Below are positions 1-17,354 of a stretch of 18,011 nt of DNA, in pieces. The stretch is from positions 1 through 18,011 of the IMG/VR virus record IMGVR_UViG_2630968500_000004. One strand, written 5' to 3'. A model generated the notes under the pieces. The model searched no databases and was not told the origin of the DNA. It saw only the letters and a program-made list of their open reading frames with translations. This stretch comes from a virus (taxonomy: Duplodnaviria; Heunggongvirae; Uroviricota; Caudoviricetes). A program made the translations under genes and the position numbers. Within the stretch, counting starts at the first letter, position 1, and the number at the start of each line of letters is the position of its first letter.

Positions 1-635
1 AGGTGGGTCAGAAGGTGTTCGCTATCGGCAACCCCTTCGGCCTGGACTGGACGCTCACCACTGGTATCGTCTCCGCGCTCGACCGCTCGTTGCCGGGAGA
101 AGCGGGCGGCCCGGCCATCGATCACCTGATCCAGACCGACGCCGCCATCAACCCCGGCAATTCCGGTGGCCCGCTGCTCGATTCGGCTGGGCGGCTGATC
201 GGAATCAATACCGCCATCTACAGTCCGTCTGGCGCCTCGGCCGGCATAGGCTTTGCGGTGCCGGTCGATACCGTCATGCGCGTGGTGCCGCAACTCATAA
301 AGACCGGCAAGTACATCCGTCCGGCACTGGGCATCGAGGTGGATGAGCAGATCAACGCGCGTCTGCAGGCGCTGACCGGCAGTAAGGGCGTATTCGTATT
401 GCGCGTGACGCCGGGCTCGGCGGCGCACAGGGCCGGGCTCGTCGGCGTCGAGGTCACCGCAGGCGGCATCGTGCCCGGCGATCGCGTTATCAGCATCGAC
501 GGTATCGCCGTCGACGACGTCACCACATTACAGGCCCGGCTAGACGACAAGAACGTTGGAGATGTTGTGGTCTTGTTAGTGGAGCGGGCCGGCAAGACTC
601 GCGAGATGCTTGTGGAACTACAACCGGGAGTTTGA
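1..635 (+). CDS. HtrA/DegP-family periplasmic serine protease, C-terminal part (5' end lies outside the window)
   Basis: ORF 3..635 is open to the left edge. Translation contains the trypsin-like catalytic serine motif GNSGGPL and a C-terminal PDZ-like region (GIEV...VTPGSAA...GDRVISIDG). Region is GC-rich by eye. Confidence 0.8.
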
Positions 636-637
636 TG

Positions 638-1432
638 GAAAGTGGGTCATGGATCTGCACAGCGAAGCAGCCAAGCGACTTCAGCCTTGCGCCGAACTAC
701 GAGCCCTAGCTAGGGATGGTCTGAAGTAGCCCTGTATTTCCGGCTGACTTCAGCCACTGCTGATTTTGAAAGCGGTGAACCGATCAAAAACGATCGGATC
801 ACCCGCTCATTTCGGTGCTTTCAGCCGTCGCGAGCACCTTGCGACGGCCATTTTCCGCATTACAGGCGCACCTCTCCTGCGCTTGCCAGCAAATGTCGGC
901 GGGCCATCCATAGGTTCGACAGGGCAAACAGCGTCACCAGTTGTGCAGTGTTCCTCACCAGCCCTCGGAAACGTACCTTGGTGTAGCCGAACTGCCGCTT
1001 GATCACGCGAAACGGGGGCTCTACCTTCGCTCGCACTTGCGCCTTGGCCTTCTCGATCTTGCGCTTGGCTTTGTACAGGGCGCTGCGTTTATCGAGCATC
1101 TTGTAGGTGCTGCGGCGTGCTGCGACCTGCCAGATCACTTCTCGGTCGGCATGCTCGGAGCGCTTTTCGACGCCGGTGTAGCCGGCATCGGCGCAGACGA
1201 CGTTCTCGTCGCCGTGCAGCAGCTTGTCGACCTGGGTGACATCCGCCACGGTGGCTGCCGTGCCCACCACGCTGTGTACCAGCCCCGATTCATCATCAAC
1301 GCCGATGTGCGCCTTCATGCCAAAGTAATACTGGTTCCCCTTCTTGGTCTGGTGCATTTTCGGGTCGCGCTTGCCGTCCTGGTTCTTGGATGAACTGGGC
1401 GCGTGGATCAGCGTGGCATCGACGATAGTCCA
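638..1432 (-). mobile_element. IS5-family insertion sequence remnant: transposase C-terminal ~190 codons (860..~1432, minus strand), N-terminal third missing
   Basis: C-terminal half of minus ORF 860..2119 (IVDATLIHAPSSSKNQDGKRDPKMHQTKKGNQYYFGMKAHIGVD ... HPFRVIKRQFGYTKVRFRGL ... LFALSNLW) matches the IS5 transposase DDE domain from about residue 120 onward. No frame upstream encodes the IS5 N-terminal region. GGAAAGTGGGTC at 638-649 loosely resembles IS5-group terminal repeats; this and the exact boundaries are tentative. Confidence 0.65.
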
Positions 1433-2119
1433 TCTTGATAATATCGGGCCGCTCAACGCTTGGGTACGGCACGAAATCCAGCTCGACGATGCGCGTCCAC
1501 TGGATGTCGTTATCCTGTCGTTCGTTGGCTTGTGGCTCCTCGTCGAGCAATGTTGGTGCTTCGATGCGGGTGACGACGAAATCCCGAAACTCTCTACTCT
1601 TGCGATCAAAGGGACGTGCCAGCGCATGCCGGTATCAACCAAAGCAAAGGGCACAATTACCCGCTCGGACTCGCCGCTGCTCATCGAGTAGTAGCGGATG
1701 GCGACGGGTCGCTTAGCGTGGATGCCTCGGCAAATCGTGGCTAACACATCCATCTTGGGAATGCTTAGGGCTGCGGGGGATTCGCATGGTAGCAGCGCCT
1801 GCATTGAGCCGTTCACGCCATCGCCAAAACCGAGAGACAGCGCCGACAGAACGCGCAGCGATGCGTGCTCGAACAACGGTGAGAACTCCTGCCCGATGCG
1901 ATAAATCTTGTTGCTACCATCGAAGGTGATGTTATGCGGCGCAATTTCCCGGTACAAAGCCAAATCGCGTGTCGCCCCTGCCGGAGCCACACCGAAGCGC
2001 TCAATCAGATCAGGGCGTCCGATCTCACCGAAGAAATAGAGCCGAAAATCGATGTAGGCCAACCTCTCGCGCTGGACCAAACTCAAGTCCTCAAGCCGCT
2101 TAGAAAGGGAACCAAGCAT
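1433..2119 (-). pseudogene. Disrupted HTH/WYL-like transcriptional regulator gene, frameshifted and fused to the IS5 remnant
   Basis: N-terminal 175 residues of minus ORF 860..2119 look like an HTH followed by a WYL-type motif (RVIVPFALVDTGMRWHV). After about residue 175 the frame becomes S-rich low-complexity, while an alternative frame (minus ORF 1296..1550) carries protein-like sequence, implying a frameshift between about 1550 and 1600. The junction with transposase sequence is near 1432-1440. Confidence 0.4.
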
Positions 2120-2496
2120 GAATCATCACTATAGGGAAAAAATGAATATTTAATACGGTAATCCATAAAGTGCCATGATTATAATCAAATTGATGATAAT
2201 CAGCATTAATACTTATGTAACAGCAAGAATTTATGTCTTAAACGTAGACAGTCATCGTATGGGCTGATGTTTCTATACCGTTAAATTGATGCCATCCAAC
2301 TATAAAACCTTGCTGCCCAATGCCCTATAGCTCCCTCAGGCAATTTGCCCTTATCCACTGTTCTGGTCTGGGGATGAGGGATATCAGAATAACCTAACGA
2401 CTCAGGGACTGGGATCACAGGCAACCGTGGCTCGTCGCTTACCTTAATTCAAATTATTTTCAGATAGATATCATTCTTCTGAACATACCCGATTAA

Positions 2497-2532
2497 CGGC
2501 AGAATCTCACGATTCTGCCGTTTTTGTATAAT
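2497..2532 (+). promoter_or_regulatory. Perfect 10-bp inverted repeat (CGGCAGAATC-tcac-GATTCTGCCG), T5 tract, then TATAAT -10 element upstream of the GTPase gene
   Basis: Arms at 2497-2506 and 2511-2520, TTTTT at 2521-2525, TATAAT at 2527-2532, GGAG at 2541-2544, ATG at 2551. Could be an operator overlapping the promoter or an intrinsic terminator for a lost upstream gene. Confidence 0.4.
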
Positions 2533-2550
2533 TTTTCAGAGGAGTAGCTA

Positions 2551-3414
2551 ATGAACAATTCTGAAGGTTTGAAGTCGTTTCAGCAATCGCTTGCTGGCCT
2601 GCCACAGTGGGTGTCTGAACGTATATTGCAGCAGATAAATCAGTTAACCCATTACGAGCCAGTAATCGGCATTATGGGTAAGAGCGGTGCCGGTAAATCC
2701 TCACTCTGCAATGCCCTGTTTGCCAGTGAGGTATCACCGGTCAGCGATGTGGCGGCCTGTACACGTGAGCCACTGCGCTTTCGCCTGCAGGTTGGCGACC
2801 GCTATATAACGCTGATGGATCTGCCCGGCGTGGGCGAAAGTGGCGCTCGCGATACCGAGTATGCTGCGCTGTACCGCGAACAGCTTCCTCGCCTCGACCT
2901 GGTACTGTGGCTGATTAAGGCCGATGACCGGGCGCTGACGGTGGATGAACATTTTTATCATCAGGTGATTGGAGAGGTATACCGGCATAAGGTGCTGTTT
3001 GTTATCAGCCAGTCGGATAAGGCCGAACCTACCAGCGGTGGGGGACAGTTGTCCACGGCGCAGAAGCAGAATATCAGCCGCAAAATCTGCCTGCTGCATG
3101 AGCTGTTCCAGCCCGTCCATCCGGTGTGTGCTGTGTCGGTCCGTCTACAATGGGGGCTTAAGGTGATGGCCGAGCGGATGATTAAGTGCCTGCCACGTGA
3201 GGCCACCAGCCCGGTGGTGTCGCAACTCCATCCTTCCTTTCGCACGACGGTAGTCCGGGAACAGGCTCGTAGCGATTTTGGTGAAACCGTCGGGGCCGTA
3301 CTCGATAGCATCAGTGCCTTTCCCCTGATACCCGCCCCTGTGCGGGCCGTCATTCAGGCCGTGCGCACCACCGTGGTCTCTGTGGCCCGCGCCGTCTGGG
3401 ATTTCTTCTTCTGA
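2551..3414 (+). CDS. yfjP: P-loop GTPase of the cryptic-prophage YfjP/YeeP/YkfA family
   Basis: 287 aa. Walker A GKSGAGKSS, G3 DLPG, G4 SQSDK. Length and downstream synteny match CP4-57 yfjP; paralog assignment not verified by alignment. Confidence 0.8.
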   Translation: MNNSEGLKSFQQSLAGLPQWVSERILQQINQLTHYEPVIGIMGKSGAGKSSLCNALFASEVSPVSDVAACTREPLRFRLQVGDRYITLMDLPGVGESGARDTEYAALYREQLPRLDLVLWLIKADDRALTVDEHFYHQVIGEVYRHKVLFVISQSDKAEPTSGGGQLSTAQKQNISRKICLLHELFQPVHPVCAVSVRLQWGLKVMAERMIKCLPREATSPVVSQLHPSFRTTVVREQARSDFGETVGAVLDSISAFPLIPAPVRAVIQAVRTTVVSVARAVWDFFF

Positions 3415-3444
3415 GTATTTAATCCATCCCTGTTATTTCCCCGA

Positions 3445-3484
3445 CCCTGTCGCCGATGCGACGGGGATCCCCTTTATTTGTTTT
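3445..3484 (+). terminator. Hairpin plus T-rich tract between the GTPase and DUF932 genes (possible intrinsic terminator or attenuator)
   Basis: 9-bp stem 3445-3453 / 3458-3466 (one G-U wobble), loop CGAT, followed by the T-rich stretch ATCCCCTTTATTTGTTTT. Confidence 0.4.
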
Positions 3485-3505
3485 CCCGTTATGAGGAGTC
3501 TGCTT

Positions 3506-4327
3506 ATGACCCGTCTGGCTTCGCGCTTTGGCGCTGCAAACATTATTCGTCGTGACCGTCCGTTAACCCGCGAGGAGCTGTTTCGCGTGGTGCCCAGTGT
3601 GTTCAGCGAGGATAAACATGAATCCCGTAGTGAACGCTACACCTATATACCCACCATCTCCTTGCTGGACAGCCTGCAGCGAGAAGGCTTCCAGCCATTC
3701 TTTGCCTGTCAGACCCGTGTGCGTGATCCGGAGCGTCGCGAACACACCAAGCATATGCTGCGTCTACGGCGTGAGGGACAGATAACCGGTAAGCAGGTGC
3801 CGGAAATAATCCTGCTCAACTCTCACGATGGCAGCAGTTCGTACCAGATGCTGCCGGGACTATTTCGTGCGGTTTGTCAGAACGGGCTCGTCTGCGGTGA
3901 GTCGTTTGGCGAGGTGCGGGTGCCACACAAGGGGGACGTGGTGAGTCAGGTGATTGAAGGCGCGTATGAGGTGCTGGGGATTTTTGACCGGGTGGAGGAG
4001 AAACGGGATGCCATGCAGTCGTTGCTGTTGCCACCCCCGGCACAGCAGGCACTGGCAAAAGCCGCCCTCACATACCGCTTTGGTGAAGACCACCAGCCGG
4101 TGACTGAATCGCAGATCCTCTCCCCTCGCCGCTGGCAGGATGAGAGCAATGACCTGTGGACCACGTACCAGCGTATTCAGGAGAACCTGATTAAGGGCGG
4201 GCTCAGTGGCCGTAATGCCAAAGGAGGACGGTCACATACCCGTGCCGTTCGCGGTATCGACGGGGACGTGAAACTTAACCGGGCACTGTGGGTGATGGCG
4301 GAAGCCCTGCTCACGCAACTGCAGTGA
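3506..4327 (+). CDS. yfjQ: DUF932-family protein (YfjQ-like)
   Basis: Frame of ORF 3491..4327. Start placed at the internal ATG 3506 because GAGGAG lies 7 nt upstream, giving 273 aa, the length of E. coli YfjQ. Position directly downstream of the GTPase matches CP4-57. Confidence 0.7.
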   Translation: MTRLASRFGAANIIRRDRPLTREELFRVVPSVFSEDKHESRSERYTYIPTISLLDSLQREGFQPFFACQTRVRDPERREHTKHMLRLRREGQITGKQVPEIILLNSHDGSSSYQMLPGLFRAVCQNGLVCGESFGEVRVPHKGDVVSQVIEGAYEVLGIFDRVEEKRDAMQSLLLPPPAQQALAKAALTYRFGEDHQPVTESQILSPRRWQDESNDLWTTYQRIQENLIKGGLSGRNAKGGRSHTRAVRGIDGDVKLNRALWVMAEALLTQLQ

Positions 4328-4356
4328 CCGTTTAATGTTGCTGCTTTGTTAATATC

Positions 4357-4483
4357 GGACACCACCTGTCCGCATCGCACCGTGCTGACGGTCCTCACTC
4401 ACCGAGGGAAGGCCTGTAACCCCCGCTGCCTCTGGCTTTTGCAGAAATGAAAAATAGTTTCTGTGGTGTCCATACCCTGTCCG
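4357..4483 (+). promoter_or_regulatory. Inverted repeat GGACACCAC / GTGGTGTCC, each followed by a CTGTCCG direct repeat, upstream of the WYL regulator gene
   Basis: GGACACCAC 4357-4365 and its exact reverse complement GTGGTGTCC 4463-4471; CTGTCCG at 4366-4372 and 4477-4483. Lies in the 216-bp gap before the regulator ATG at 4544. Confidence 0.35.
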
Positions 4484-4543
4484 ACCCCCTCTTTAAAGTA
4501 ATCACATCATTTTCAGTCAGTTAACTTTCACGGAGAACGTCTC

Positions 4544-5245
4544 ATGACACAGGCAGAACGCCGCCATGACCGGCTGGCTGTCAGGCTGTCACTGATAATC
4601 AGCCGTCTGGTGGCAGGGGAAACGCTGAGTGTGCGTAAGCTTGCCGCTGAGTTTGGTGTGTCGGTGCGCACGCTGCGGCGTGATTTTCGTGAGCGGCTGA
4701 TGTATCTGGACCTGGAGTATCAGTCCGGATATTGCCGCTTACGCACTGCGGGCAGTGAGACGCAGATGGTGCCCGACGTGCTTATCTTTGCCCACCGCAG
4801 CGGGATGGCCGGTCTTTTCCCTGGCTTTGACCGTCGTCTGGTAAACGCACTGCTGATGTGCGATGAGTCTCCCTGCGTAATCGCACCCGCCAGTCCGGTT
4901 CCTTCGCCATCAGGCGCATTGTCTTTCTGGCGACTGATTCAGGCCATTACCGGGCGCAGGCGGGTGACTCTGATTGCCGAGGGGCAGCGCTGTGAGCGGC
5001 TGGCTCCCTGCCGGTTACTTATCCACCAGCAGGCCTGGTATCTGGTGGCAGAGCACGACGGACATATCGCCGTATTCTCCCTGGATGAAATCCATCTGAT
5101 TCAGCCTTTGCAGGAGACTTTTCGCCGCAATGACAGTCTGTGTCGCCTGGTTGAAGACCCGGTCTTCATTCAGGCCTTACCCCATTTTCGCTTTATCCAG
5201 CATTCACTGCTTACGTTTGTTCCGGCTGACAGCCCACCGGAATAG
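4544..5245 (+). CDS. yfjR: HTH/WYL-domain transcriptional regulator (YfjR-like)
   Basis: 233 aa. N-terminal HTH-like region ([20 protein letters not shown]) and a WYL motif ([22 protein letters not shown]). GGAG 8 nt upstream of the ATG. Length equals E. coli YfjR. Confidence 0.8.
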
Positions 5246-5285
5246 CGCAGGCGTTGTTATCAACGCGGCAACAGGGAGGAGCCCA

Positions 5286-5522
5286 GTGCCCGTTATTGCC
5301 ATTATCGCCATTGTTATCATCGTCATCATTCTGAACAAAACCGGAGTGTCCGACAGCCTCACGGCCTTGACACTTGCAACCGTTGCCGCACTACTGACGG
5401 GAGGTGGCGCAGCCGGTGCTGCCAGTGTCGCGCTGACGCCGTTCGTCGGCGTGCCAGTGGGTATTTTTGTGGGAATTTATGTCTTTGCCAAAGTGGTTCG
5501 TCTGATTTCAGGGAAAAAATAA
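5286..5522 (+). CDS. Small hydrophobic inner-membrane protein (78 aa)
   Basis: GTG start 5286 preceded by GGGAGGA with 5-nt spacing, within the frame of ORF 5130..5522. Translation is almost entirely hydrophobic (VPVIAIIAIVIIVIIL ... GIFVGIYVFAKVV). Stop TAA overlaps the next ATG (TAATG). Occupies the ypjK position of CP4-57; symbol not asserted. Confidence 0.5.
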   Translation: MPVIAIIAIVIIVIILNKTGVSDSLTALTLATVAALLTGGGAAGAASVALTPFVGVPVGIFVGIYVFAKVVRLISGKK

Positions 5523-5965
5523 TGAAACGTAAAACACTACCTCTGCTGGCGCTGGTTGCCACCTCTCTGTTTCTGAGCGCCTGCGATGACAGCAGTGATG
5601 ACCTCAAAGCTATCAGTAAATTTAAGGACCTCACGCCTCCGCGCTTCAGCGATGTGGTCAGTCGGCAGGATGATGTCAGCGAAGAATGGTCACAGGTTGG
5701 CTTTTCATCAGGTCTCACCCTGCAGGTCTTACGTACCCGTGAGTCGCCCGATGGCTGCGAGGGCGGTAGTTACTACTACCTCGTGGATATGCAGGAAAAA
5801 ACCATCCAGCCGCTGATGAATGCGCTGTGTATTGCCGATAACATCAAACTGGAATACCAGGAGGTGACGGACCCGTATACCAAAGAAAAATACTTTGAGT
5901 ACGCCCATGACGGCAAACTGATGGGGCAGCTACTGATACCCTCGAACCCTGACAATCAGGAATAA
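5522..5965 (+). CDS. yfjS: Lipoprotein (YfjS-like)
   Basis: 147 aa. Signal peptide with lipobox LSAC (MKRKTLPLLALVATSLFLSAC). Length and position match E. coli YfjS. Confidence 0.7.
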   Translation: MKRKTLPLLALVATSLFLSACDDSSDDLKAISKFKDLTPPRFSDVVSRQDDVSEEWSQVGFSSGLTLQVLRTRESPDGCEGGSYYYLVDMQEKTIQPLMNALCIADNIKLEYQEVTDPYTKEKYFEYAHDGKLMGQLLIPSNPDNQE

Positions 5966-5987
5966 AACAACGACAAAGGAGACAAGA

Positions 5988-6455
5988 ATGACAATACTTT
6001 CACTAAGTCGGTTTATGCTGGCGGGTGTACTGCTCGCGAGCTTTAATGCCTCTGCTATCCCGGGGTTCTGGCAGCAGGGTTACGGTCAGGGCAATACGGA
6101 ATACAGCGTGACCGAAGCCAGCGGAAAGACGTTTACCATCAACTGCACAGGGAACCCGGACCAGAATGGTTTCTATCAGCATTCAGTCTTTCTTACCCTT
6201 GCCGATGACAAGATGGTCAGTTCGCACGATGACGACACTACTATCACCGTAGTGATGGATCACCAGCAGTACATTATTCCGTCCAGCCTGGGCTGGCGTA
6301 ACGGCGATAACGCCTGGTTTGACTTCATCAGCAATATCTCTGAGGCCGGGCAGTTCGACGTCTACGTCAATGACCACAAAGCAGGGACCTTCACTGCGGA
6401 CCGGAAGAACACTGAGAAAGTTCTGTCCACTCTCGGAGACTGCAGCAACGACTGA
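5988..6455 (+). CDS. yfjT: Secreted/periplasmic protein (YfjT-like)
   Basis: 155 aa. N-terminal signal peptide ([23 protein letters not shown]). AGGAG upstream. Length and position match E. coli YfjT. Confidence 0.7.
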
Positions 6456-6481
6456 TAGTAGTATCTTCCCCAGCAAATCCA

Positions 6482-6516
6482 CCCCGACAGCTAGCAGGCT
6501 GCCGGGGTTTTCTTTT
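6482..6516 (+). terminator. Rho-independent terminator after the yfjT-like gene
   Basis: 10-bp stem CCCCGACAGC 6482-6491 / GCTGCCGGGG 6498-6507 with one A-C mismatch, followed by TTTTCTTTT. Confidence 0.55.
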
Positions 6517-6531
6517 ATCAGGAGCCCGAAA

Positions 6532-6681
6532 ATGACCCAATCCGTGTTGCTGCCACCGGGGCCTTTCACCCGGAGACAAGCGCAAGCGGTCACTACCACG
6601 TACAGCAATATCACACTCGAAGACGACCAGGGCAGTCACTTCCGTCTGGTGGTTCGTGATACTGAAGGCCGGATGGTCTGA
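6532..6681 (+). CDS. Small hypothetical protein (49 aa)
   Basis: ATG 6532 with GGAG 8 nt upstream, directly after the terminator; in frame with listed ORF 6319..6681. No recognisable family. Confidence 0.3.
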
Positions 6682-6868
6682 CGGGCATGGAACTTTGAGC
6701 CGGATGCCGGTGAAGGTCTTAACCGCTATATCCGCACCTCAGGCATCCGTACAGACACGGCCACCCGCTGATCGCGAAGCATTTACCCGCATTCACCTCC
6801 CCGAACACACTTTATATCCCCATACGCCAGCCATCGCCGCTGGCGTTTTTATTGACGGAGACATACCC

Positions 6869-7327
6869 ATGACAACACAGACGCAGCACGACCTCGCACC
6901 CGCTAACCAACCCGAATTTGAACTGACCGTCACGCCGGTCCCCGATGAACAGCGTATCGATTTCTGGCCACAGTACTTTGGCGCTATCCCGCAGTGGCTA
7001 CTCCTGGAGCCGCATATCTTCGCCTGGATGGACCGCTTCTGTGAGGGCTACAGCGGTGGTATCTGGTCGTTCTACACCCTCAGCAATGGCGGCGCATTTA
7101 TGTCCCCCGAGCCTGACAACGATGAGACATGGCGTCTGTTTAACTGCCTGAACGGTAACGATGCCCAAATGAGTGCAGAAGCAGCAGGTATTGCTGTCTG
7201 CCTGATTGCGTATAGCCACCATGCCTGCCGTACAGAATGTGACGCGATGACCGCACACTATTACCGCCTGCGGGAGTATGCCATGCAACATCCAGAGGCT
7301 CACGCCATTCTGCGTATTATCGACTGA
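6869..7327 (+). CDS. yfjX: Antirestriction-family protein (YfjX-like)
   Basis: Frame of ORF 6656..7327. Start set to the internal ATG 6869 (GGAG 9 nt upstream), giving 152 aa, the length of E. coli YfjX; the upstream extension looks non-coding. Family call is by resemblance, not alignment. Confidence 0.7.
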   Translation: MTTQTQHDLAPANQPEFELTVTPVPDEQRIDFWPQYFGAIPQWLLLEPHIFAWMDRFCEGYSGGIWSFYTLSNGGAFMSPEPDNDETWRLFNCLNGNDAQMSAEAAGIAVCLIAYSHHACRTECDAMTAHYYRLREYAMQHPEAHAILRIID

Positions 7328-7342
7328 CCGAAGGAGCAACAG

Positions 7343-7819
7343 ATGAAACAGCTTTCCTTTTTACCCGGCGAGATGACGCCACAGGACCGGCGTCTCATTC
7401 AGCGGGCGCTCAGGGCTCTGGACCGCCACCTGCATGAGCCCGGCGTAGCCTTCACCTCTACCCACGCCGTACGTGAATGGCTGCGACTGCATATGGCCGC
7501 GCTTGAGCGGGAAGAGTTCCGGGTGTTGTATCTGGACAACCAGAATCAGTTGATTGCCCATGAAACGCTCTTCACCGGCACGATTAACCGCACCGAGGTG
7601 CATCCCCGGGAGGTGGTCAAACGTGCTCTGCACTTCAACGCGGCGGCGGTGATACTCGCGCATAACCATCCTTCCGGCGAGACGACACCTAGCCAGGCCG
7701 ACAAAACCCTCACGCAGCGACTGGTTCAGGTGCTTCAGCTGGTGGATATCCGTGTCCCTGACCATCTGATTGTCGGTGGCAGGCAAATCTATTCGTTCGC
7801 AGAACACGGTCTGCTTTGA
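7343..7819 (+). CDS. yfjY: RadC-like JAB-domain protein (YfjY/YeeS/YkfG family)
   Basis: 158 aa with the JAMM-type motif HNHPSG and the conserved PSQAD segment. AGGAG upstream. Confidence 0.85.
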   Translation: MKQLSFLPGEMTPQDRRLIQRALRALDRHLHEPGVAFTSTHAVREWLRLHMAALEREEFRVLYLDNQNQLIAHETLFTGTINRTEVHPREVVKRALHFNAAAVILAHNHPSGETTPSQADKTLTQRLVQVLQLVDIRVPDHLIVGGRQIYSFAEHGLL

Positions 7820-7827
7820 GGTATTAC

Positions 7828-8049
7828 ATGAAAATTATCAGTAAACGCAGGGCAATGACGATATACCGCCAGCATCCTGAGTCCCGAATCTTTCGCTACT
7901 GCACCGGCAAATACCAGTGGCACGGTAGCGTCTGTCATTACACCGGCAGGGACGTTCCGGATATCGCCGGAGTCCTCGCGGTATACGCCGAACGCCGCCA
8001 GGACCGCAATGGGCCCTATACCTGCCTGATGAGCATCACCCTGAACTGA
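7828..8049 (+). CDS. ypjJ: DUF987-family small protein (YpjJ/YeeT-like)
   Basis: Frame of ORF 7816..8049. ATG 7828 preferred (GAGG upstream; 7816 is a TTG inside the RadC stop region). Sequence pattern RIFRYCTGKYQWHGS ... GPYTCLMSITLN is typical of YeeT/YpjJ proteins. Confidence 0.7.
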   Translation: MKIISKRRAMTIYRQHPESRIFRYCTGKYQWHGSVCHYTGRDVPDIAGVLAVYAERRQDRNGPYTCLMSITLN

Positions 8050-8067
8050 CAATAGTGGAGAACTGTA

Positions 8068-8747
<680 letters not shown>

Positions 8748-8811
8748 ACATTGCGTACAACCTTCCCGATTTACATTTCTGAACTTCCTCCCTTGTTTAC
8801 CTATTGCGTAA

Positions 8812-8847
8812 TGCGCCTGCTACTACCCGGCAGGCGCGTTATCTTTT
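8812..8847 (+). terminator. Rho-independent terminator after the toxin gene
   Basis: Perfect 8-bp stem GCGCCTGC 8812-8819 / GCAGGCGC 8829-8836, 9-nt loop, then GTTATCTTTTT. Confidence 0.6.
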
Positions 8848-9275
8848 TACGGACAAACAATCATGCAACCAGAAGTTGAAGTATTAACCGATCATAATGA
8901 GCTAATTTGTTCGAGCTTTATTGAACACATTGCCAACACATTAAATTTAGGAGTGGTGTACAACTAAACCTGCAGCCAAGGATGTATAGTGAGCGAAGCC
9001 CTATCAGGCCTTTTTGGTCAGTAGATAAGATTGATCTTCGTTGATAGAATTTACTTACACCAGCTGTTACATTAAGATAATTTTTTGGTGGGAGAATGAT
9101 AAGATCTTACGTAACAATTTGATTTTAATGGTGCGATAATAGGAACAATACCTAACGATCAATCACCATGATTTAAATGAATTTTTATGCTTTCGATTTT
9201 CTCACATACCCCCAAAAGTACCCCCACATTGTTTTTCGTCTCAATTTTGGGGTATGCGCTTACCAAGAAACACAG

Positions 9276-9464
9276 CTAACGCCGTGGTGATGGTTTGCGC
9301 CAGTGGTACTCTTGCGCGGTCATGCGTTGACGATGGCGCTCTTTTGCTGCGAGTGTACCGGCGACTCTACACCGCAATTCAAGCTTGTCAGCAGCATTTA
9401 GCGTAACCCCCTGCTGAGTTGCCATCTCGACTATAGCAGACTCGATCACTTCTGATTTCAGCAT
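9276..9464 (-). CDS. Small hypothetical protein (62 aa)
   Basis: Frame of minus ORF 9276..9473. ATG 9464 preferred because GAGGTGG lies 8 nt upstream. Last gene of the minus-strand operon. No family recognised. Confidence 0.4.
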   Translation of the reverse strand: MLKSEVIESAIVEMATQQGVTLNAADKLELRCRVAGTLAAKERHRQRMTAQEYHWRKPSPRR

Positions 9465-9515
9465 GAAAACCACCTCGCAAATATTGTTATATGTGACATG
9501 TCACCGAGCACACTA

Positions 9516-9989
9516 TTAGCCCATAAACCGACGATAAGCCTCTCCGGCTTCTTCTGCGGTAAGGCTTGTGGTCTCCGCCCTGATCGGCCCGCCGTCCTTA
9601 CCTGTAGTCTCGACTTTCAGCTTATTGGTGTAAGCATCTCCGCACTCTTTTGCGGCCTGTTCGATCAGCTGCGCCGTCAATGCGTAGTTTTTTATCGCCT
9701 CGGCTCGGTTTGCCATACGATCCAGCATTCGCAACCGGTACGCTTTGTTAGCGATCGGGATATCGGATATTTCACTCTGGAACCGGGCGCGAGTGTGGTT
9801 AAAGAGCTCGACCCACTTTTTGCTAAGATTTTTAGCCATCGAATTTTCAGGGTTGTAGGCCGATATCTGCTGCCGGGTAACAACGATACCAAAATCTTGT
9901 TTTACAAGTTCGACAATTCTTGATGGAGGTTCATAGCAGGCTAAAGATTGAATAATCATCACCTTAGCCATAGTTGGTAATGCTGCCAT
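9516..9989 (-). CDS. Phage small-terminase-like / DUF2280-like protein (tentative)
   Basis: 157 aa. N-terminal segment (IIQSLACYEPPSRIVELVKQDFGIVVTRQQISAY) resembles the HTH-type N-terminus of DUF2280 / small-terminase-like phage proteins as I remember them. Recognition is from memory and unverified. Confidence 0.45.
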   Translation of the reverse strand: MAALPTMAKVMIIQSLACYEPPSRIVELVKQDFGIVVTRQQISAYNPENSMAKNLSKKWVELFNHTRARFQSEISDIPIANKAYRLRMLDRMANRAEAIKNYALTAQLIEQAAKECGDAYTNKLKVETTGKDGGPIRAETTSLTAEEAGEAYRRFMG

Positions 9990-10081
9990 CGCTCACCTTT
10001 TGACAAAGGAAATCAAAGTAGCGCACTGAGTTCTGACCTCCCGCGCCGCTACTTAAAGTTACATATCACGCCATCTGACCG

Positions 10082-10261
10082 TCACCCTACGTTATTTCGC
10101 ATGGTTTCCGCTGTGCGAGATTCTTCGCTGATCGCACTCTCACCGAAGCTGCCAATACCATCTGGTTCCGGCTGCCCGTTGATATCATCCAGCCAGGTAC
10201 GAACCTTACCATTCTGGCTGGCTCCGCTTTCTTCTGGTTTCAGTTTTTCAATATTGCTCAT
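10082..10261 (-). CDS. Small acidic hypothetical protein (59 aa), absent from the ORF track
   Basis: Hand translation of the minus strand: MSNIEKLKPEESGASQNGKVRTWLDDINGQPEPDGIGSFGESAISEESRTAETMRNNVG. Its ATG (10261-10259) overlaps the spike-gene stop TGA (10260-10258) as ATGA, suggesting translational coupling. Confidence 0.3.
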   Translation of the reverse strand: MSNIEKLKPEESGASQNGKVRTWLDDINGQPEPDGIGSFGESAISEESRTAETMRNNVG

Positions 10262-10920
10262 TGTGGTTTTCCTGTGTTGCTGCCGCCTGATTGTACACCG
10301 CCGTGGGTATGGTTAATCTGGCTGATACCGTTGGCCGTTTGGTCGCCAGTGGAAGTGATCGTTCCGTTTACCTGCACGGGCCCGTTAAGGGTGATTTGAG
10401 AGCTGGTAATCGTAATGGCTCCACCAGCGGCCACTTCTACAAATGCCGCGCCATCATCGGTTCGCAGCTGCGCGGCGCTGGTACTGATACCGCTGATTTT
10501 CTTCACCTGCGACTGCGGGCCAGGAATCACGAACGCATCCGACAGATCTAAAACACGCCCGTCAGCTCGCTCCTGCACACCGCCGTTTTGCCACCAGAAA
10601 TCAATCGAACGCGAAGAGAATACGATAAGGCACTCATCACCTTCTTTGATAGGGAAGGTCAGGGTCACGCCACCGCCACGAGGGAACACAACTGGCAAAT
10701 CAACCAGAATAGGATACCTAACTGATTCATACTGATAGTCTTCCTCGACGGTGCCGGGTTTCGTCATTCTGGCAATTATTGCTACGTCGACGTCACAGGT
10801 CACTGTTTCCGGGTCAAATGAACGGATAATGCCTGGTAAGGCATTCTTTACCGCAGCATTGCTATTGCTCTGTATTTGGTTAACCGTATCTTGCTCATTG
10901 GCAGGTCGAATAAATGGCAT
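10258..10920 (-). CDS. Phage baseplate central spike protein, gpV / Gp138-type
   Basis: Frame of minus ORF 10258..10965. N-terminal LPGIIRSFDPETVTCDVDVAI is an OB-fold-like spike signature; C-terminus INHTHGGVQSGGSNTGKP carries the HxH apex motif typical of P2 gpV-type spikes. Start chosen at ATG 10920 (GGGG 5 nt upstream); the alternative TTG at 10965 would overlap the preceding gene. Confidence 0.6.
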   Translation of the reverse strand: MPFIRPANEQDTVNQIQSNSNAAVKNALPGIIRSFDPETVTCDVDVAIIARMTKPGTVEEDYQYESVRYPILVDLPVVFPRGGGVTLTFPIKEGDECLIVFSSRSIDFWWQNGGVQERADGRVLDLSDAFVIPGPQSQVKKISGISTSAAQLRTDDGAAFVEVAAGGAITITSSQITLNGPVQVNGTITSTGDQTANGISQINHTHGGVQSGGSNTGKPQ

Positions 10921-10930
10921 AGCTACCCCA

Positions 10931-11278
10931 TCAACCTGATATACGTTTACAGTCAAACGAGCCAATAATGCGAGGCTCGTCCATATTGCCGCGAATCAAC
11001 TCAACATTAAGCCAGCGTTTATTGCTTCCGTTCGGGTGAATGTATTCAAAGCCGTACATATTCCCATCACGCGCAGGCATCAATGTCATCTCAACTTTGA
11101 GTCCATCATCACCGAGTTCAGTAATTTTTTGAGATGTAACCATTTCCCCGTTAACTCTTGTCATTTCGCCGACTTTGGCAACAAGATTGAAGTTTCCACA
11201 TTGTGAAATTACTGTTCCAGTATTTGCTAAAGCATTAGTGGAAAGTATCACGGATAAGAAAATGAATGTTTTTTTCAT
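10931..11278 (-). CDS. Secreted protein with a cleavable signal peptide (115 aa), low-GC insert
   Basis: N-terminus MKKTFIFLSVILSTNALA followed by NTG: a classic Sec signal with an AxA site and no lipobox cysteine. Codon usage is visibly AT-richer than both flanking genes. Two cysteines in the mature part. Confidence 0.6.
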   Translation of the reverse strand: MKKTFIFLSVILSTNALANTGTVISQCGNFNLVAKVGEMTRVNGEMVTSQKITELGDDGLKVEMTLMPARDGNMYGFEYIHPNGSNKRWLNVELIRGNMDEPRIIGSFDCKRISG

Positions 11279-11282
11279 GCAG

Positions 11283-12374
11283 TTACCACTTATTTAGTGT
11301 TTCGCCAGAATAAATATCAGTAGCGCCCCGAGCTTCACAAGCCAGATCCATATACCATGCCTGCCCTCTGGTATCGCCGGTATAATTTATATACCGAACC
11401 TTATAAACACCGTCAGTTGCAATGCTGGCAGGTTGAGAGGTTGGTGGCGCATCAATCAGGTTTCCATTGGCATCCTTGATCTTCGTTATTGGTACAAGGT
11501 TTCCATCAATATCTTTTTCGACAAATCGCCCACTAAATATATCCTGATTCGACAATGGATTGCGGTACACCGACGCCTGATCCAACTGAATAAGCCCATT
11601 CAGTTGAATACTTGAATTGATTAAACAGCGTACATTAACCCCAGCTCCGATAGTTTGCTGAGGCATGCCCACCAGCCCAGTATTTGAGTTTAATACTACG
11701 GCCTGATGTGCCGCTGTATCTCTGGCAATCATGTCGACCTTGCCGTAACTAAACTGCCAGGTAGCCTTACACTGCGCAGCTACCTCATCAAGATAGTTAT
11801 GCACGTAACCAAAGAAAGCTCGCCCGCGAGGAAATACCGTTGATGGAAAAACCGGAGTGATACCGCGCCCGATACCATAGGGTTCCAAGCTCGTCATGAG
11901 AAGGTTATAGACGTCTTCAGTGGTGTAGCCTTTCTGAATGGTCGTACTGACGAACGCGCTGACAAACGCTTCTTCTGAATCACAGGCCTGCACGAGAATC
12001 CAGGAATCGACGAGATTATCCTTACCGGTCACTGTAAAACGGATATCACCGCTAAAGATCATCCCATAGTTTTGCCCATTGGTTTGACCTACCTGGTCAG
12101 GTGAAATCTCCCGGACGACACCAACTTCACTCTCCTGAACATCCTTAGCCAGGCCATCATATCCCGCTATCAGAACAATCTTGGCAAACTCACGCTGCAT
12201 AATACGGTTCTGAGTGGTCGGTGAAAGGTTGTAGATCTTGACCGTCGCGACAGCTGGCCATTTGTTATCGTTACGCTCTATATCAAAGGTAACTTTGAAA
12301 TCACTAAGGCTAATTCCTTTGCCATTCTCATCGATGAGCTGTAGCTCGAAATGGCGCATCCAGTTATATGACAT
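11283..12374 (-). CDS. Phage tail/baseplate protein, possibly a gpD-like hub (tentative)
   Basis: 363 aa, with an AGGAA ribosome-binding site. N-terminal beta-rich pattern (HFELQLIDENGKGISLSDFKVTFDIERNDNKWPAVATVKIYNLSP) resembles the N-terminal domain of P2 gpD / Mu gp44 hub proteins, and it sits upstream of the spike gene as in Mu-like tail modules. The coding call is solid; the hub assignment is weak. Confidence 0.5.
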   Translation of the reverse strand: MSYNWMRHFELQLIDENGKGISLSDFKVTFDIERNDNKWPAVATVKIYNLSPTTQNRIMQREFAKIVLIAGYDGLAKDVQESEVGVVREISPDQVGQTNGQNYGMIFSGDIRFTVTGKDNLVDSWILVQACDSEEAFVSAFVSTTIQKGYTTEDVYNLLMTSLEPYGIGRGITPVFPSTVFPRGRAFFGYVHNYLDEVAAQCKATWQFSYGKVDMIARDTAAHQAVVLNSNTGLVGMPQQTIGAGVNVRCLINSSIQLNGLIQLDQASVYRNPLSNQDIFSGRFVEKDIDGNLVPITKIKDANGNLIDAPPTSQPASIATDGVYKVRYINYTGDTRGQAWYMDLACEARGATDIYSGETLNKW

Positions 12375-12379
12375 AGTCG

Positions 12380-12547
12380 TTATTCCTGAATTGATGCCAG
12401 CGCTTTCGCCACCAGCCCACGGGCAATTTGATGGACAGACGGCGCTACGCCAATATCGGAGCGCTGACGTTCGCGCTCCTGGATCTTGCAGATTGCGGCG
12501 AACTGGTCGCCAGAGAGTAATACCGGCTTAACGTTTGGCTTTTTCAT
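12380..12547 (-). CDS. Small basic hypothetical protein (55 aa)
   Basis: Frame of minus ORF 12380..12640. ATG 12547 preferred (GGAGTG 6 nt upstream). Overlaps the 3' end of the upstream gene by about 20 nt. Confidence 0.4.
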   Translation of the reverse strand: MKKPNVKPVLLSGDQFAAICKIQERERQRSDIGVAPSVHQIARGLVAKALASIQE

Positions 12548-12716
12548 CCTGTTCACTCCAGAACCGTGCGTTTGCTTCGTTGAGGTTTGCATTGTTGCGA
12601 CACTCGCGATCGAAGTTATTGCGAGCCTTTGCCGCCTCAAGGTCTTGCCGGGTCAGCATCGGACGGCGTGTACTCTGTGGGTTGCCTGCTGCTAATTTTG
12701 GGTTGTATGTAGCCAT
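12528..12716 (-). CDS. Small hypothetical protein (62 aa)
   Basis: Frame of minus ORF 12528..12725. ATG 12716 preferred: strong TAAGGAGTG ribosome-binding site 8 nt upstream. Confidence 0.45.
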   Translation of the reverse strand: MATYNPKLAAGNPQSTRRPMLTRQDLEAAKARNNFDRECRNNANLNEANARFWSEQDEKAKR

Positions 12717-12728
12717 GCTGATCACTCC

Positions 12729-13280
12729 TTACCTTGTGCGGTGCCAGAAGCTGGCATTATCGGTGTTGATCTGGCGGAGAGAGTCGCCAGTGGTGAGAGT
12801 CTTCGGCGTTACGTTATTGGCCTTCATGTAGTCGCCCACCTGCTCCAGCACGTCGATAGCCTGATCCAGCGGGATTTCTGACAGCGGGGTCGGGTGTACG
12901 GCGCTGAACGCCTCAACAGGGGCATAGCGCAGCACATCGAGCGCGACAATGCGCGGGTCGGCGTCGGGCAGCGCTGAATCGTACTTTGGCGCTACGGCGC
13001 GTACCAGCCGCATGAACTCGGCATTCATGGCCGTTGGTGCTGTAGACGTTGGAGAAGCGCCGCTACCACTTCGGGTAATCATGTCACTATCGCGGGTGTA
13101 CATACGACGCAAACGGTCGCCGGTTGCAATGCGTGTAGCGCGTTCCTGTTTAAGCGTTGTTGCAAGATTTGCAATGATAGCCGCTACCTGTGCGTTACAG
13201 GCAAATACGGCTTCGCTTCCATCCGCGAACGTGACCACCCCGCTTTCACCAGATATAGAGATGTTTGAGATTTCTTGCAT
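12729..13280 (-). CDS. Hypothetical protein (183 aa), first gene of the minus-strand operon
   Basis: ATG at 13280-13278; long ORF with no recognisable family by eye. Followed by tightly spaced or overlapping downstream genes. Confidence 0.55.
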   Translation of the reverse strand: MQEISNISISGESGVVTFADGSEAVFACNAQVAAIIANLATTLKQERATRIATGDRLRRMYTRDSDMITRSGSGASPTSTAPTAMNAEFMRLVRAVAPKYDSALPDADPRIVALDVLRYAPVEAFSAVHPTPLSEIPLDQAIDVLEQVGDYMKANNVTPKTLTTGDSLRQINTDNASFWHRTR

Positions 13281-13314
13281 GGTTCAGAACCTTAGTAATT
13301 GCTCGAATTCTGAT

Positions 13315-13333
13315 CATTGCACAAATTGCAATG
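13315..13333. promoter_or_regulatory. Operator-like palindrome CATTGCA-n5-TGCAATG upstream of the minus-strand operon
   Basis: 7-bp arms at 13315-13321 and 13327-13333. ATTGCACA recurs at 13406-13413. Located 35-55 bp upstream of the 183-aa gene start. Confidence 0.3.
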
Positions 13334-13428
13334 TTAGTAAATATCGTTGCGAATATTGAAATAATAAATCAACCTGTTACTATGGATATGAGTCACTATT
13401 GTGTGATTGCACAGCATGGTTAACAAAA

Positions 13429-13462
13429 GCCCGCGCCTCTCCAAGCGTGGGCTTTTTCTTTT
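13429..13462. terminator. Rho-independent terminator, potentially bidirectional
   Basis: 8-bp stem GCCCGCGC 13429-13436 / GCGTGGGC 13445-13452 (one G-U wobble), loop CTCTCCAA, TTTTTCTTTTC downstream and ACAAAA upstream. Confidence 0.5.
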
Positions 13463-13842
13463 CTGGTCAGCAACGTGTCTCTTTCCCTCATCGGTTACTT
13501 AAAAAATCGATTCCACGCCCGGTATACCCTTCAATCCCTCAAGCCATGCGCTTGCCAAGCCCATCATGTATACAAAACCGGGCAAAAATACATTGAGGGG
13601 TATACAGCCATACCCCAGCAGTGGCAGGGGTTAGGAGGCATTGATTATCAATGCGTGGGGTGTGATAACTTTTTGTGGATTTATTCAGCAAAAACACATC
13701 GGTGTATCCGGTGATGCGGTCAGAGATCTGACACGTTCCCCCCCCTGGTGATCGGCGGAAAAGTCCGCCGATGCTGATGCTGGCCTAACCTGCTTTCGAT
13801 GTTTTCGTTTTAGAGAAAACGCTATAGATAAACAAAAACATG

Positions 13843-14133
13843 TTGGTTCAGTCGGTTCAGTTGGTTCAATTTGTAAAGATTGTTGTTTTATAAGGTTTAT
13901 TTATTGATGAGTGAACCAACAAAGCCATGTTTTGAACCAACAATCGCTATTTTCGTGTTGGTTCAGTGGGAAAGATTTACAGGCCAGCCAGAAAAGGGTG
14001 TTGGTTCAATAGCGGTATTTGTTGGTTCAAAATGGGCGTTTGTTGGTTCAGTGTTGGTTCACTTATGAACATATAAGTATATTAAATACATACAGTTATC
14101 TTAATTATGTAGTTACTGAACCAACTGAACCAA
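13843..14133. repeat. Iteron array: 12 copies of the octamer TTGGTTCA / TGAACCAA (one degenerate); candidate origin of replication
   Basis: Forward copies at 13843, 13853 (cGGTTCA, degenerate), 13861, 13958, 14001, 14022, 14043, 14054. Reverse copies at 13912, 13933, 14117, 14126. Irregular spacing, AT-rich context, immediately 3' of the primase-helicase gene. Confidence 0.7.
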
Positions 14134-14158
14134 CAAAAAACAATCTCGTGTGTGTGCT

Positions 14159-16840: not shown

Positions 16841-17055
16841 GGCTTAACCTCATCCACTGATTGAAACTCTGTTAAAAAACGCAAATCCGACTGCATACAC
16901 GGCGATGAGTAGCCATCACGATAAAATGTCACTCTGTTGAATCGGTAGCTTTCCACCGTCACCAGACAACCCCGCTTATCCTTCCATTTATCGCCTTTAC
17001 GAATCACAGGGCGAGCGAAGCCACTGGCAAGAGAGCCAGTTAATTTCTTTTCCAT
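16837..17055 (-). CDS. Hypothetical protein (72 aa) overlapping the primase start
   Basis: Stop overlaps the primase ATG; AAAGG upstream. No family recognised; not AlpA-like by eye. Confidence 0.45.
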   Translation of the reverse strand: MEKKLTGSLASGFARPVIRKGDKWKDKRGCLVTVESYRFNRVTFYRDGYSSPCMQSDLRFLTEFQSVDEVKP

Positions 17056-17057
17056 GG

Positions 17058-17354
17058 TTATTTACCTTTCGTCATCTGACGACACTGATATTCCGCATTG
17101 GCTGCGGTATCAGATAACGCTCGCGCCAGCGGCATTAATTCCATCAGCATCCCACCAATATCTCGGAAATCTGTTGCTGACGGCTCATATTCACCGTTCT
17201 CAGCACCACCAGCGTAGAACATCATCTTACCTACAGCGGCGATCCCATTCAGGATGCTATCGGCGGCGCACTCAGCACGGGAAGACAGCATCTGGAGATC
17301 AGATTTATCGGTATCAGGGAAATCGGTGCGCACAAAATCGTTGTAAAGGTTCAT
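17058..17354 (-). CDS. Hypothetical protein (98 aa) coupled to the recombinase gene
   Basis: ATG overlaps the recombinase stop (ATGA); GGAGGT 5 nt upstream. No family recognised. Confidence 0.45.
   Translation of the reverse strand: MNLYNDFVRTDFPDTDKSDLQMLSSRAECAADSILNGIAAVGKMMFYAGGAENGEYEPSATDFRDIGGMLMELMPLARALSDTAANAEYQCRQMTKGK

Follow-up and report, generated by a model that had tools for sequence, protein, structure and literature searches.

Examination of an 18,011-nucleotide stretch of DNA listed in IMG/VR as a virus of the Caudoviricetes (record IMGVR_UViG_2630968500_000004, positions 1 to 18,011; hereafter the window) revealed three co-directional genes coding for a GTPase, a DUF932 protein and a regulator with helix-turn-helix (HTH) and WYL domains. 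All three lie on the + strand, and the RefSeq annotation of the identical locus in Escherichia coli strain G5 agrees with the Pfam assignments. They are the yfjP-yfjQ-yfjR set of CP4-57-type islands, known but uncharacterised. In these respects a preliminary description made from the sequence alone was borne out: it had named the same three families, had considered the set conserved across E. coli cryptic prophages, which island loci in E. coli and in the wider Enterobacterales support, and had given it no assigned function, in agreement with the literature searched. It had also read the genes as a single cassette with a palindromic operator on its promoter and as a candidate inducible phage-defence or stress module. 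Comparison of homologous loci points to another organisation, which we consider probable: an island backbone transcribed as two units, of which the first would be controlled by termination and read-through and the second autoregulated by YfjR.

Over positions 2200-5300 the window and the chromosome of E. coli strain G5 are identical (100%), and a match to the yfjP-yfjQ-yfjR region is found in 604 of 5426 complete E. coli genomes (~11%), at a median of 3 places per genome. Here begins the conserved backbone shared by the CP4-57, CP4-6 and CP4-44-type integrative islands of Enterobacterales. In RefSeq, the G5 locus begins with the end of a heat-resistance locus, followed by a transposase gene of the IS5 family of insertion sequences (- strand), a co-directional series of island genes and a P4-like element (- strand). 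The series runs in the order GTPase, DUF932, yfjR, ypjK, yfjS, ykfB, a ykfF pseudogene, antirestriction, RadC/JAB, DUF987 and finally yafW/ykfI, a pair of the CbeA/CbtA type according to RefSeq and Pfam. For comparison, 73 loci with a relative of the GTPase were fetched from species-representative Enterobacterales genomes (numbered with the prefix L below), and 66 distinct upstream sequences of 170 nt were compared. In all 72 enterobacterial loci the DUF932 gene follows the GTPase gene, and about 60 of them retain yfjR as well; yfjR is missing at L047, L066 and L071, where the first two genes are retained. The features of the region are collected in Table 1.

Table 1. Genes and predicted regulatory features of the yfjP-yfjQ-yfjR region, in window coordinates.
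Feature	Position	Strand	Basis or remarks
-35-like hexamer TTCAAA of the predicted sigma-70 promoter of the GTPase operon	2448-2453	+	comparison of leaders
Conserved promoter core: spacer CAGATAGA, -10 TATCAT (2469-2474), box TCTGAACATA	2459-2488	+	
Predicted leader intrinsic terminator T1	2495-2526	+	arms AACGGCAGAATC (2495-2506) / GATTCTGCCGTT (2511-2522), loop TCAC, T-run 2521-2525
Shine-Dalgarno AGGAG of the GTPase gene	2540-2544	+	read from sequence
yfjP/ykfA/yeeP-family GTPase, 287 aa	2551-3414	+	Pfam MMR_HSR1 9e-16; RefSeq 'GTPase family protein'
Intercistronic hairpin T2, CCCTGTCGC / GCGACGGGG, loop CGAT	3445-3466	+	arms 3445-3453 / 3458-3466; T-rich tract at 3473-3484
yfjQ/yafZ-family DUF932 protein, 273 aa	3506-4327	+	Pfam DUF932 1e-52; start per RefSeq
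Terminator-like stem-loop over the yfjQ stop codon, putative end of first unit	4321-4344	+	consensus scan only
Candidate operator box 1, GGACACCACCTGTCC (GGACA-N5-TGTCC inverted repeat)	4357-4371	+	187 nt upstream of yfjR ATG
Candidate operator box 2, TGTCCATACCCTGTCC	4467-4482	+	77 nt upstream of yfjR ATG
-10-like hexamer TAAAGT of predicted yfjR promoter	4494-4499	+	position conserved; TAGAAT in other lineages
yfjR, HTH (DeoR-like) + WYL regulator, 233 aa	4544-5245	+	Pfam HTH_DeoR 8.5e-6, WYL 2.1e-5
ypjK	5286-5522	+	RefSeq
yfjS lipoprotein	5522-5965	+	RefSeq; Pfam YfjS_YafY 2e-66
ykfB	5988-6455	+	RefSeq

The product of the first gene carries what is, judged from its sequence, a G domain of the Era/Der/TrmE class. 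Its best sequence matches in the PDB are the G domains of Der, Era and TrmE, at 9e-9, and both a P-loop (GKSGAGKS, residues 43-50) and a G3 motif (DLPG, 90-93) are present; SQSD at 153-156 is possibly the G4 motif. The aligned GGA core of the Shine-Dalgarno sequence is at least 90% conserved, with varying flanks (AGGAG, GGGAG, TGGAA). The C-terminal tail is hydrophobic or amphipathic in translation, and the tail of the K-12 GTPase was recovered among membrane proteins in a two-hybrid screen (PMC13232886).

The DUF932 gene starts at the ATG at 3506, within a longer open reading frame (ORF) that opens at 3491, and is preceded by the Shine-Dalgarno sequence GAGGAG at 3494-3499. Its product is 85-99% identical between genera and belongs to a family of 5410 clusters at 50% identity. 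Among relatives 50-97% identical, the residues H83, R86, R88, E100, N105-G109, C124, N126, H141, R209, D212 and E226 are invariant, and this polar block suggests an active or binding site. Neither a PDB sequence search nor a fold search returned a solved homologue. A first AlphaFold2 (AF2) model built on a shallow alignment was poor (pLDDT 63), and the fold as finally predicted is confidently modelled and has no PDB counterpart. Weak matches to RmlC epimerases over about 60 residues were judged spurious, and a search of BFVD matched only uncharacterised DUF932, DUF945 and TIGR03299 phage proteins.

In YfjR, the HTH_DeoR and WYL matches are both above the Pfam cut-offs. The recognition helix has the motif RTLRRD, which contains R45, and the WYL domain spans residues 131-186. 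A generic WYL model of PADLOC matches at 2e-32. Beyond residue 186 just 47 residues are left, with no Pfam match, and no WCX domain was detected; a sequence search for solved WYL regulators gave no significant match. The gaps between yfjR, ypjK, yfjS and ykfB are short or the genes overlap, and ypjK-yfjS-ykfB are probably the remainder of a yfjR operon. NCBIfam and PHROGs attribute no functional names to the proteins of the module, and apart from screens the literature searched holds no functional study of yfjP, yfjQ, DUF932 or yfjR.

The palindrome just upstream of the GTPase gene had been presented as a perfect 10-bp inverted repeat and as an operator. The repeat is real and perfect, and only its length was understated: the arms pair over 12 bp around a 4-nt loop, where we estimate the chance expectation of a 12-bp repeat in 18 kb at about 0.01. 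As RNA the window hairpin has an energy of -19 kcal/mol and a fold z-score of -4.05, and a terminator scan flagged it together with the following TTTTTGT as an intrinsic terminator, on the + strand only. The hairpins of the 66 leaders comprise 57 distinct sequences (medians, 12 pairs and -17 kcal/mol), and in 61 leaders at least 5 T occur within the next 8 nt after the stem. A sequence-only MAFFT alignment of 53 distinct leaders allowed us to examine covariation. Compensatory double changes occur at all 12 stem pairs, and 88% of the cells are paired as against 40-49% in controls in which the 3' partner was slid; none of 500 shuffles reached the observed value.

The position of the hairpin is fixed, 14-24 nt past the -10 element, and the conserved promoter ends about 20 nt 5' of the stem. 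At L037, L053, L057, L058 and L060 unrelated stem sequences occupy this same position within a conserved surrounding promoter. Examples of stems are GGCAGC/GCTGCC (L037), GCAGTCT/AGACTGC (L053), CCCCAC.TCC/GGA.ATGGGG (L057) and CTCGCCTGAAT/ATTCAGGCGAG (L061), and promoter, hairpin and T-run are all found again in the K-12 yfjP leader. Pairing that is kept while the sequence runs free, together with a U-tract on one strand, argues for an RNA terminator and not for a protein operator. The half-site sequence is not conserved and the repeat overlaps no functional promoter element, so that the operator proposed for the GTPase promoter does not hold. The first palindrome, here called T1, is a predicted RNA-level intrinsic terminator of the 5' leader, at which transcripts would end.

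A covariance model of the leader matches only directly 5' of GTPase start codons, decayed copies included. One such copy belongs to the K-12 pseudogene ypjI (L075, 22471-22817), in which what is left of the 5' end of a second yfjP-like GTPase gene is joined to a DUF905-like 3' portion. This pseudogene keeps its own promoter, leader and terminator and scores 76 bits with the leader model. Decayed hairpins are also found at L045 (4926-5003) and L068 (4927-5003), with -2.2 and -5.2 kcal/mol. The GTPase gene of L068 is frameshifted and the Shine-Dalgarno sequence of L045 is degenerate too, which suggests that leader and GTPase gene decay together.

Two other roles for the hairpin were considered and set aside. 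Among homologues just 63% of an outer helix (2475-2483 / 2535-2543) that would sequester the Shine-Dalgarno sequence is paired, and the 5' arm of this helix precedes the predicted transcription start. An oriT-like or single-stranded DNA hairpin was disfavoured by a 3' flank that is T-rich but lacks any conserved nic-like motif, and by the presence of another terminator-type hairpin after the GTPase gene.

Conservation of the leader starts abruptly at the promoter, and the sequence further upstream is unrelated between loci. A TTnnAA-type hexamer stands at 15-bp spacing in 64 of the 66 leaders, and the -10 element is TATCAT in 57 and TATTAT in 7. Also conserved are CAGAnAnA in the spacer and, immediately past the -10 element, the box cTGAAC; G2481, near which transcription of the GTPase gene is predicted to start, is invariant in 53 of 53 sequences. 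In K-12, genomic SELEX (gSELEX) showed that RNA polymerase with sigma-70 alone binds the spacers upstream of yfjP and ykfA, in which its authors predicted a promoter TTGAAA-15-TATCAT (PMC3946193); this places the promoter upstream of the hairpin. A search for further copies of the promoter-like motif found one copy each in the window and in CP4-57 of K-12. The -10 element itself is flanked by an inverted repeat, TTCAGA (2459-2464) / TCTGAA (2478-2483), with a 13-bp gap. A third TTCAGA/TCTGAA copy lies at 2535-2540, just 5' of the GTPase Shine-Dalgarno sequence, and TTTCAG recurs in the 5' untranslated region of yfjR at 4511-4516; these copies may be a binding site for some factor.

The preliminary description had instead placed the -10 element of the GTPase gene next to the palindrome. 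The TATAAT hexamer at 2527-2532 exists and was rejected as a promoter element: a consensus promoter scan found no -35 partner for it, it occurs in just 1 of the 66 homologous leaders, it falls within the T-rich tract that follows the hairpin, and a transcript started from it would begin inside the Shine-Dalgarno AGGAG at 2540-2544.

The placement of T1 between promoter and gene also bears on a simpler possibility, that the hairpin is a boundary insulator or an element of mRNA stability or translation, with constitutive partial read-through and no dedicated switch. The abrupt onset of conservation next to unrelated variable sequence would suit such a boundary, as would the co-directional rnlAB operon that ends 355 bp upstream in K-12. 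Intercistronic hairpins such as the one described below often set differential expression, and the outer helix just mentioned provides weak pairing with the Shine-Dalgarno region. An insulator would, however, be expected upstream of the promoter, not between promoter and gene; the outer helix suffers from its modest pairing in homologues and from the position of its 5' arm; and a 12-bp stem followed by U5 should terminate efficiently, so that any 'constitutive' expression would be very low. We consider this explanation unlikely, although it is compatible with the two-unit organisation.

A second hairpin, T2, follows the GTPase gene. Its core is found in 59 distinct locus sequences, with compensatory changes at 4 of the 9 core pairs. 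In most loci it takes the form GAGCCCTGTCGC-loop-GCGACAGGGCTT with a T-run directly after, and in most other genera it is a textbook terminator. It is wholly absent from L062, L063, L065 and L073, where the spacer is 52 nt. No room is left for a promoter between T2 and the DUF932 start, so that DUF932 expression would also need read-through. At the far end of the DUF932 gene, the stem-loop over the stop codon is poorly conserved in other lineages, and the evidence for it as the end of the unit is weak.

The repeats that had been reported before the regulator gene, an inverted pair plus a direct pair, are present as described: GGACACCAC at 4357-4365 with GTGGTGTCC at 4463-4471 (inverted), and CCTGTCCG at 4365-4372 and 4476-4483. 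Alignment of the yfjQ-yfjR spacer in about 55 loci revealed that the units conserved across loci are two boxes, the 9-bp long-range complementarity being a lineage-specific extension of them. Box 1 is the only match to the GGACA-N5-TGTCC pattern in the window and is found at -183 to -190 in 50 of 51 loci whose YfjR has arginine at residue 45 (R45 type). Box 2 is conserved at -72 to -78 in all lineages, with the form nGACA-N5-TGTCA in loci that have tyrosine there (Y45 type). The box centres are about 111 bp apart, and box 2 occupies the place of the -35 element in the predicted yfjR promoter, whose -10-like hexamer is proposed from conservation and was not picked up by the consensus scan.

The boxes vary together with the recognition helix, RTL(R/Y)RD. 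Of 51 loci with R45, 50 carry GGACA/TGTCC, and all 8 loci with Y45 carry TGACA/TGTCA; both outer operator bases are changed symmetrically in exactly those eight loci. Such co-variation would be expected of a YfjR dimer binding the boxes; it makes the earlier proposal of a WYL regulator acting on the repeats before its own gene plausible and suggests autoregulation of YfjR through the two boxes. A summary table of gSELEX results lists the 'yfjR operon' as a YfjR target (PMC8249747). In none of the 66 leaders did the 170 nt before the GTPase gene contain a YfjR-type box, which argues for two transcription units and not for the single palindrome-regulated, three-gene cassette first proposed.

The operator could still be argued for on grounds of company. 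In that explanation the palindrome at 2495-2522 is a DNA operator bound by YfjR, and all three genes belong to a single phage-defence or stress module, whose repression is lifted by a signal of damage or infection. The regulator with its HTH and WYL domains is adjacent and co-directional, and WYL regulators such as BrxR and CapW control defence loci. The neighbourhood is rich in defence genes, with abpAB and rnlAB directly upstream of yfjP in K-12, and PADLOC gives a weak LeoBC match (2e-5) for the GTPase. Against it, a stem whose sequence varies while its pairing is kept, with a U-tract after it, behaves in the opposite way to an operator; the TATAAT that it abuts is confined to a single leader; the boxes that co-evolve with YfjR differ from it in sequence and are absent from all 66 GTPase leaders; and three loci keep GTPase and DUF932 in the absence of YfjR. 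We regard this explanation as very unlikely.

The defence role itself found no positive support in PADLOC or in the contexts of DUF932. PADLOC returned nothing for DUF932, only a generic WYL accessory model for YfjR, and no match to a system. Among the loci compared the trio is confined to Enterobacterales islands, and of four non-enterobacterial DUF932 relatives (50-61% identical) none has an adjacent GTPase or WYL gene, which speaks against a defence module made of these partners. ICE (integrative and conjugative element) or plasmid genes surround three of the four. In a Pseudomonas aeruginosa ICE the gene stands beside those for a 675-aa ParB_N protein, a DUF736 protein and a replication protein; in a Massilia ICE it lies between relaxase, KorA/IncC/KorB and type IV secretion system (T4SS) genes and an integrase; in an Acidovorax plasmid it is near DUF3560 and a relaxase; and in a metagenome contig it belongs to an array of small ORFs. 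The company of the island and ICE genes (antirestriction, RadC, toxin-antitoxin, ICE transfer genes) points to functions of a mobile-element backbone.

On the organisation that we prefer, the first unit would consist of promoter, T1, GTPase, T2 and DUF932. The sigma-70 promoter TTCAAA-15-TATCAT would give a transcript from about 2481, which after about 14 nt would run into the hairpin and its UUUUU, and most transcripts would stop there by default as an RNA of about 45 nt. GTPase and DUF932 would be made solely when RNA polymerase reads through, and an antiterminator encoded by the island or by a phage, or some other read-through signal, may turn the unit on, by analogy with known systems. The second unit would comprise box 1, box 2 with the promoter, and yfjR-ypjK-yfjS-ykfB, with YfjR regulating its own operon through both boxes.

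A further step, that promoter, T1 and T2 together form a processive-antitermination switch by which an AlpA-like or other mobile-element factor activates GTPase and DUF932, perhaps with the whole backbone, is put forward tentatively and is less likely to hold than not. Equally speculative are its triggers, for which excision, transfer and phage attack are examples. The island AlpA would be the first suspect as antiterminator, and alpA is present in CP4-57 and in L016.

The terminated leader could also be an end in itself. An RNA of about 45 nt (~2481-2526) might act in trans as a small RNA (sRNA), with a single-stranded 5' seed GAACAUACC... and a terminator plus U-tail that binds Hfq, the GTPase being a by-product of read-through. 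In its favour, promoter, short leader and terminator are conserved in their arrangement, and the 5' box cTGAACAtAC is more conserved than a leader would seem to need; StxS from the PR' promoter of Stx phage offers a precedent (PMC7547250). A search of the window for targets complementary to the conserved 5' box found only the box itself, however, an Rfam scan of the whole window at gathering thresholds found no family, and the K-12 Term-seq data discussed below list no corresponding 3' end. The element is moreover always directly 5' of a GTPase start codon, which fits a role in cis. A trans-acting RNA, although compatible with the two-unit organisation, therefore seems improbable.

Several observations weigh against the two-unit interpretation or parts of it. 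The 15-bp spacer is suboptimal for sigma-70, and for this reason the promoter assignment is a prediction. Term-seq tables for K-12 (Adams et al. 2021) contain no 3' end upstream of yfjP, where an RNA of about 45 nt or of low abundance could have escaped. T2 in the lineage of the window has no adjacent U-tract: ATCCCC parts the stem from the T-run, and T2 may here be a weakened terminator. The correlation between residue 45 and the operator may reflect few independent events, and ChIP-exo (chromatin immunoprecipitation with exonuclease treatment) detected no DNA binding by YfjR in K-12 (PMC8464067). Finally, no sequence link between AlpA and the GTPase promoter was found, and the promoter motif occurs just once in CP4-57.

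The closest known counterpart of the window is CP4-57 of K-12, where yfjP-yfjQ-yfjR (with paralogues ykfA-yafZ in CP4-6 and yeeP in CP4-44) show the same families, order and intergenic architecture. Compared with E. coli L020, whose upstream abpAB/rnlAB genes are 100% identical to those of K-12 CP4-57, the GTPase of the window is 84% identical and DUF932 and YfjR are 97% identical. Downstream, the window and CP4-57 have ypjK, yfjS, antirestriction, RadC/JAB and CbeA/CbtA in common. The two differ upstream, where the heat-resistance locus and the IS5-family element adjoin the window copy in place of rnlAB, and in the hairpins: the sequence of T1 differs while its pairing is kept, and it is the window T2 that lacks the adjacent U-tract.

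The layout of the first unit resembles that of lambda Q with PR'-tR' and of P. aeruginosa AlpA with PalpB-tB, in which a self-sufficient promoter with a conserved element inside it is likewise separated from the first gene by a terminator, and more terminators follow within the operon. In P. aeruginosa, AlpA binds an element in the -35 to -10 interval, and the terminators directly precede the first gene (PMC7969949). The window differs from these systems in that the P. aeruginosa ABE motif GGGACG-N5-GGTA is absent from its promoter and in that its terminator stands just ~14 nt from the predicted start.

Like regulators of the BrxR and CapW type, YfjR combines an N-terminal HTH with a WYL domain and has inverted-repeat boxes before its own gene, so that autoregulation is likely. 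It is shorter than these proteins (233 aa), with neither a detected WCX domain nor a significant match to the solved members of the class, and the genes after yfjR code for small envelope proteins (ypjK, yfjS, ykfB) and not for a recognised defence system. The DUF932 protein, for its part, belongs to the family of the TIGR03299 'phage/plasmid-like' proteins, with 50-61% identity to proteobacterial ICE and plasmid copies. The neighbours of those copies in three of the four relatives are ParB_N, relaxase, KorA/KorB, T4SS and integrase genes, whereas in the contexts examined only the enterobacterial island copies are preceded by a GTPase gene and a leader terminator.

The remainder of the window carries several further features. 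At its start (3-635, + strand) lies the 3' end of the gene for an S1C serine protease, the last of the heat-resistance locus (clpK, sHSP20-GI, yfdX1/2, hdeD-GI, trx-GI, kefB-GI, psiE-GI); the island backbone abuts this locus and the IS5 element. An intact ORF of 419 aa at 860-2119 (- strand) combines a C-terminal IS5-family DDE transposase part with an N-terminal part that matches Pfam WYL at 3.9e-7; RefSeq names only 860-1435 of it, as a partial IS5 transposase. Downstream of the yfjR operon, an ORF with an ArdB/KlcA-like antirestriction domain (6656-7327, + strand) is open for 223 aa from a GTG; RefSeq starts it at 6869, giving 152 aa, and it is closely preceded by a ykfF (DUF905) pseudogene interrupted by an internal stop. 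From about 9500 to 18011 (- strand) extends a separate P4-like integrative or satellite element, with a TOPRIM+DUF927 primase gene (14159-16840), a DUF4222 gene and a tyrosine recombinase gene from 17351; Icd-like and HTH genes lie just past the window end.

The genes of this region are known y-genes of K-12, and the class of the regulator and the logic of termination and antitermination are of known kinds. For the leader terminator, the intercistronic hairpin, the YfjR operator and the pairing of R45 or Y45 with it, no earlier description was found in the literature searched. The comparison corrects two tempting mis-annotations, that of a terminator as an operator and that of a backbone module as a defence system, and proposes GGACA-N5-TGTCC as the operator, and R45/Y45 as the residue that sets specificity, of a WYL regulator that had not been characterised.

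Several copies of the yfjP-yfjQ-yfjR set per genome are usual in the E. coli that carry it, and the set is also present in many other Enterobacterales. Placement of GTPase and DUF932 behind a conserved terminator would explain the apparent silence of these genes, and such gating may account for the uninformative outcome of knock-out and ChIP screens. The key question thus shifts from the targets of repression by YfjR to what reads through T1. If the antitermination switch is true, it would offer the first regulatory handle on two widespread uncharacterised proteins, and a functional assay for them.

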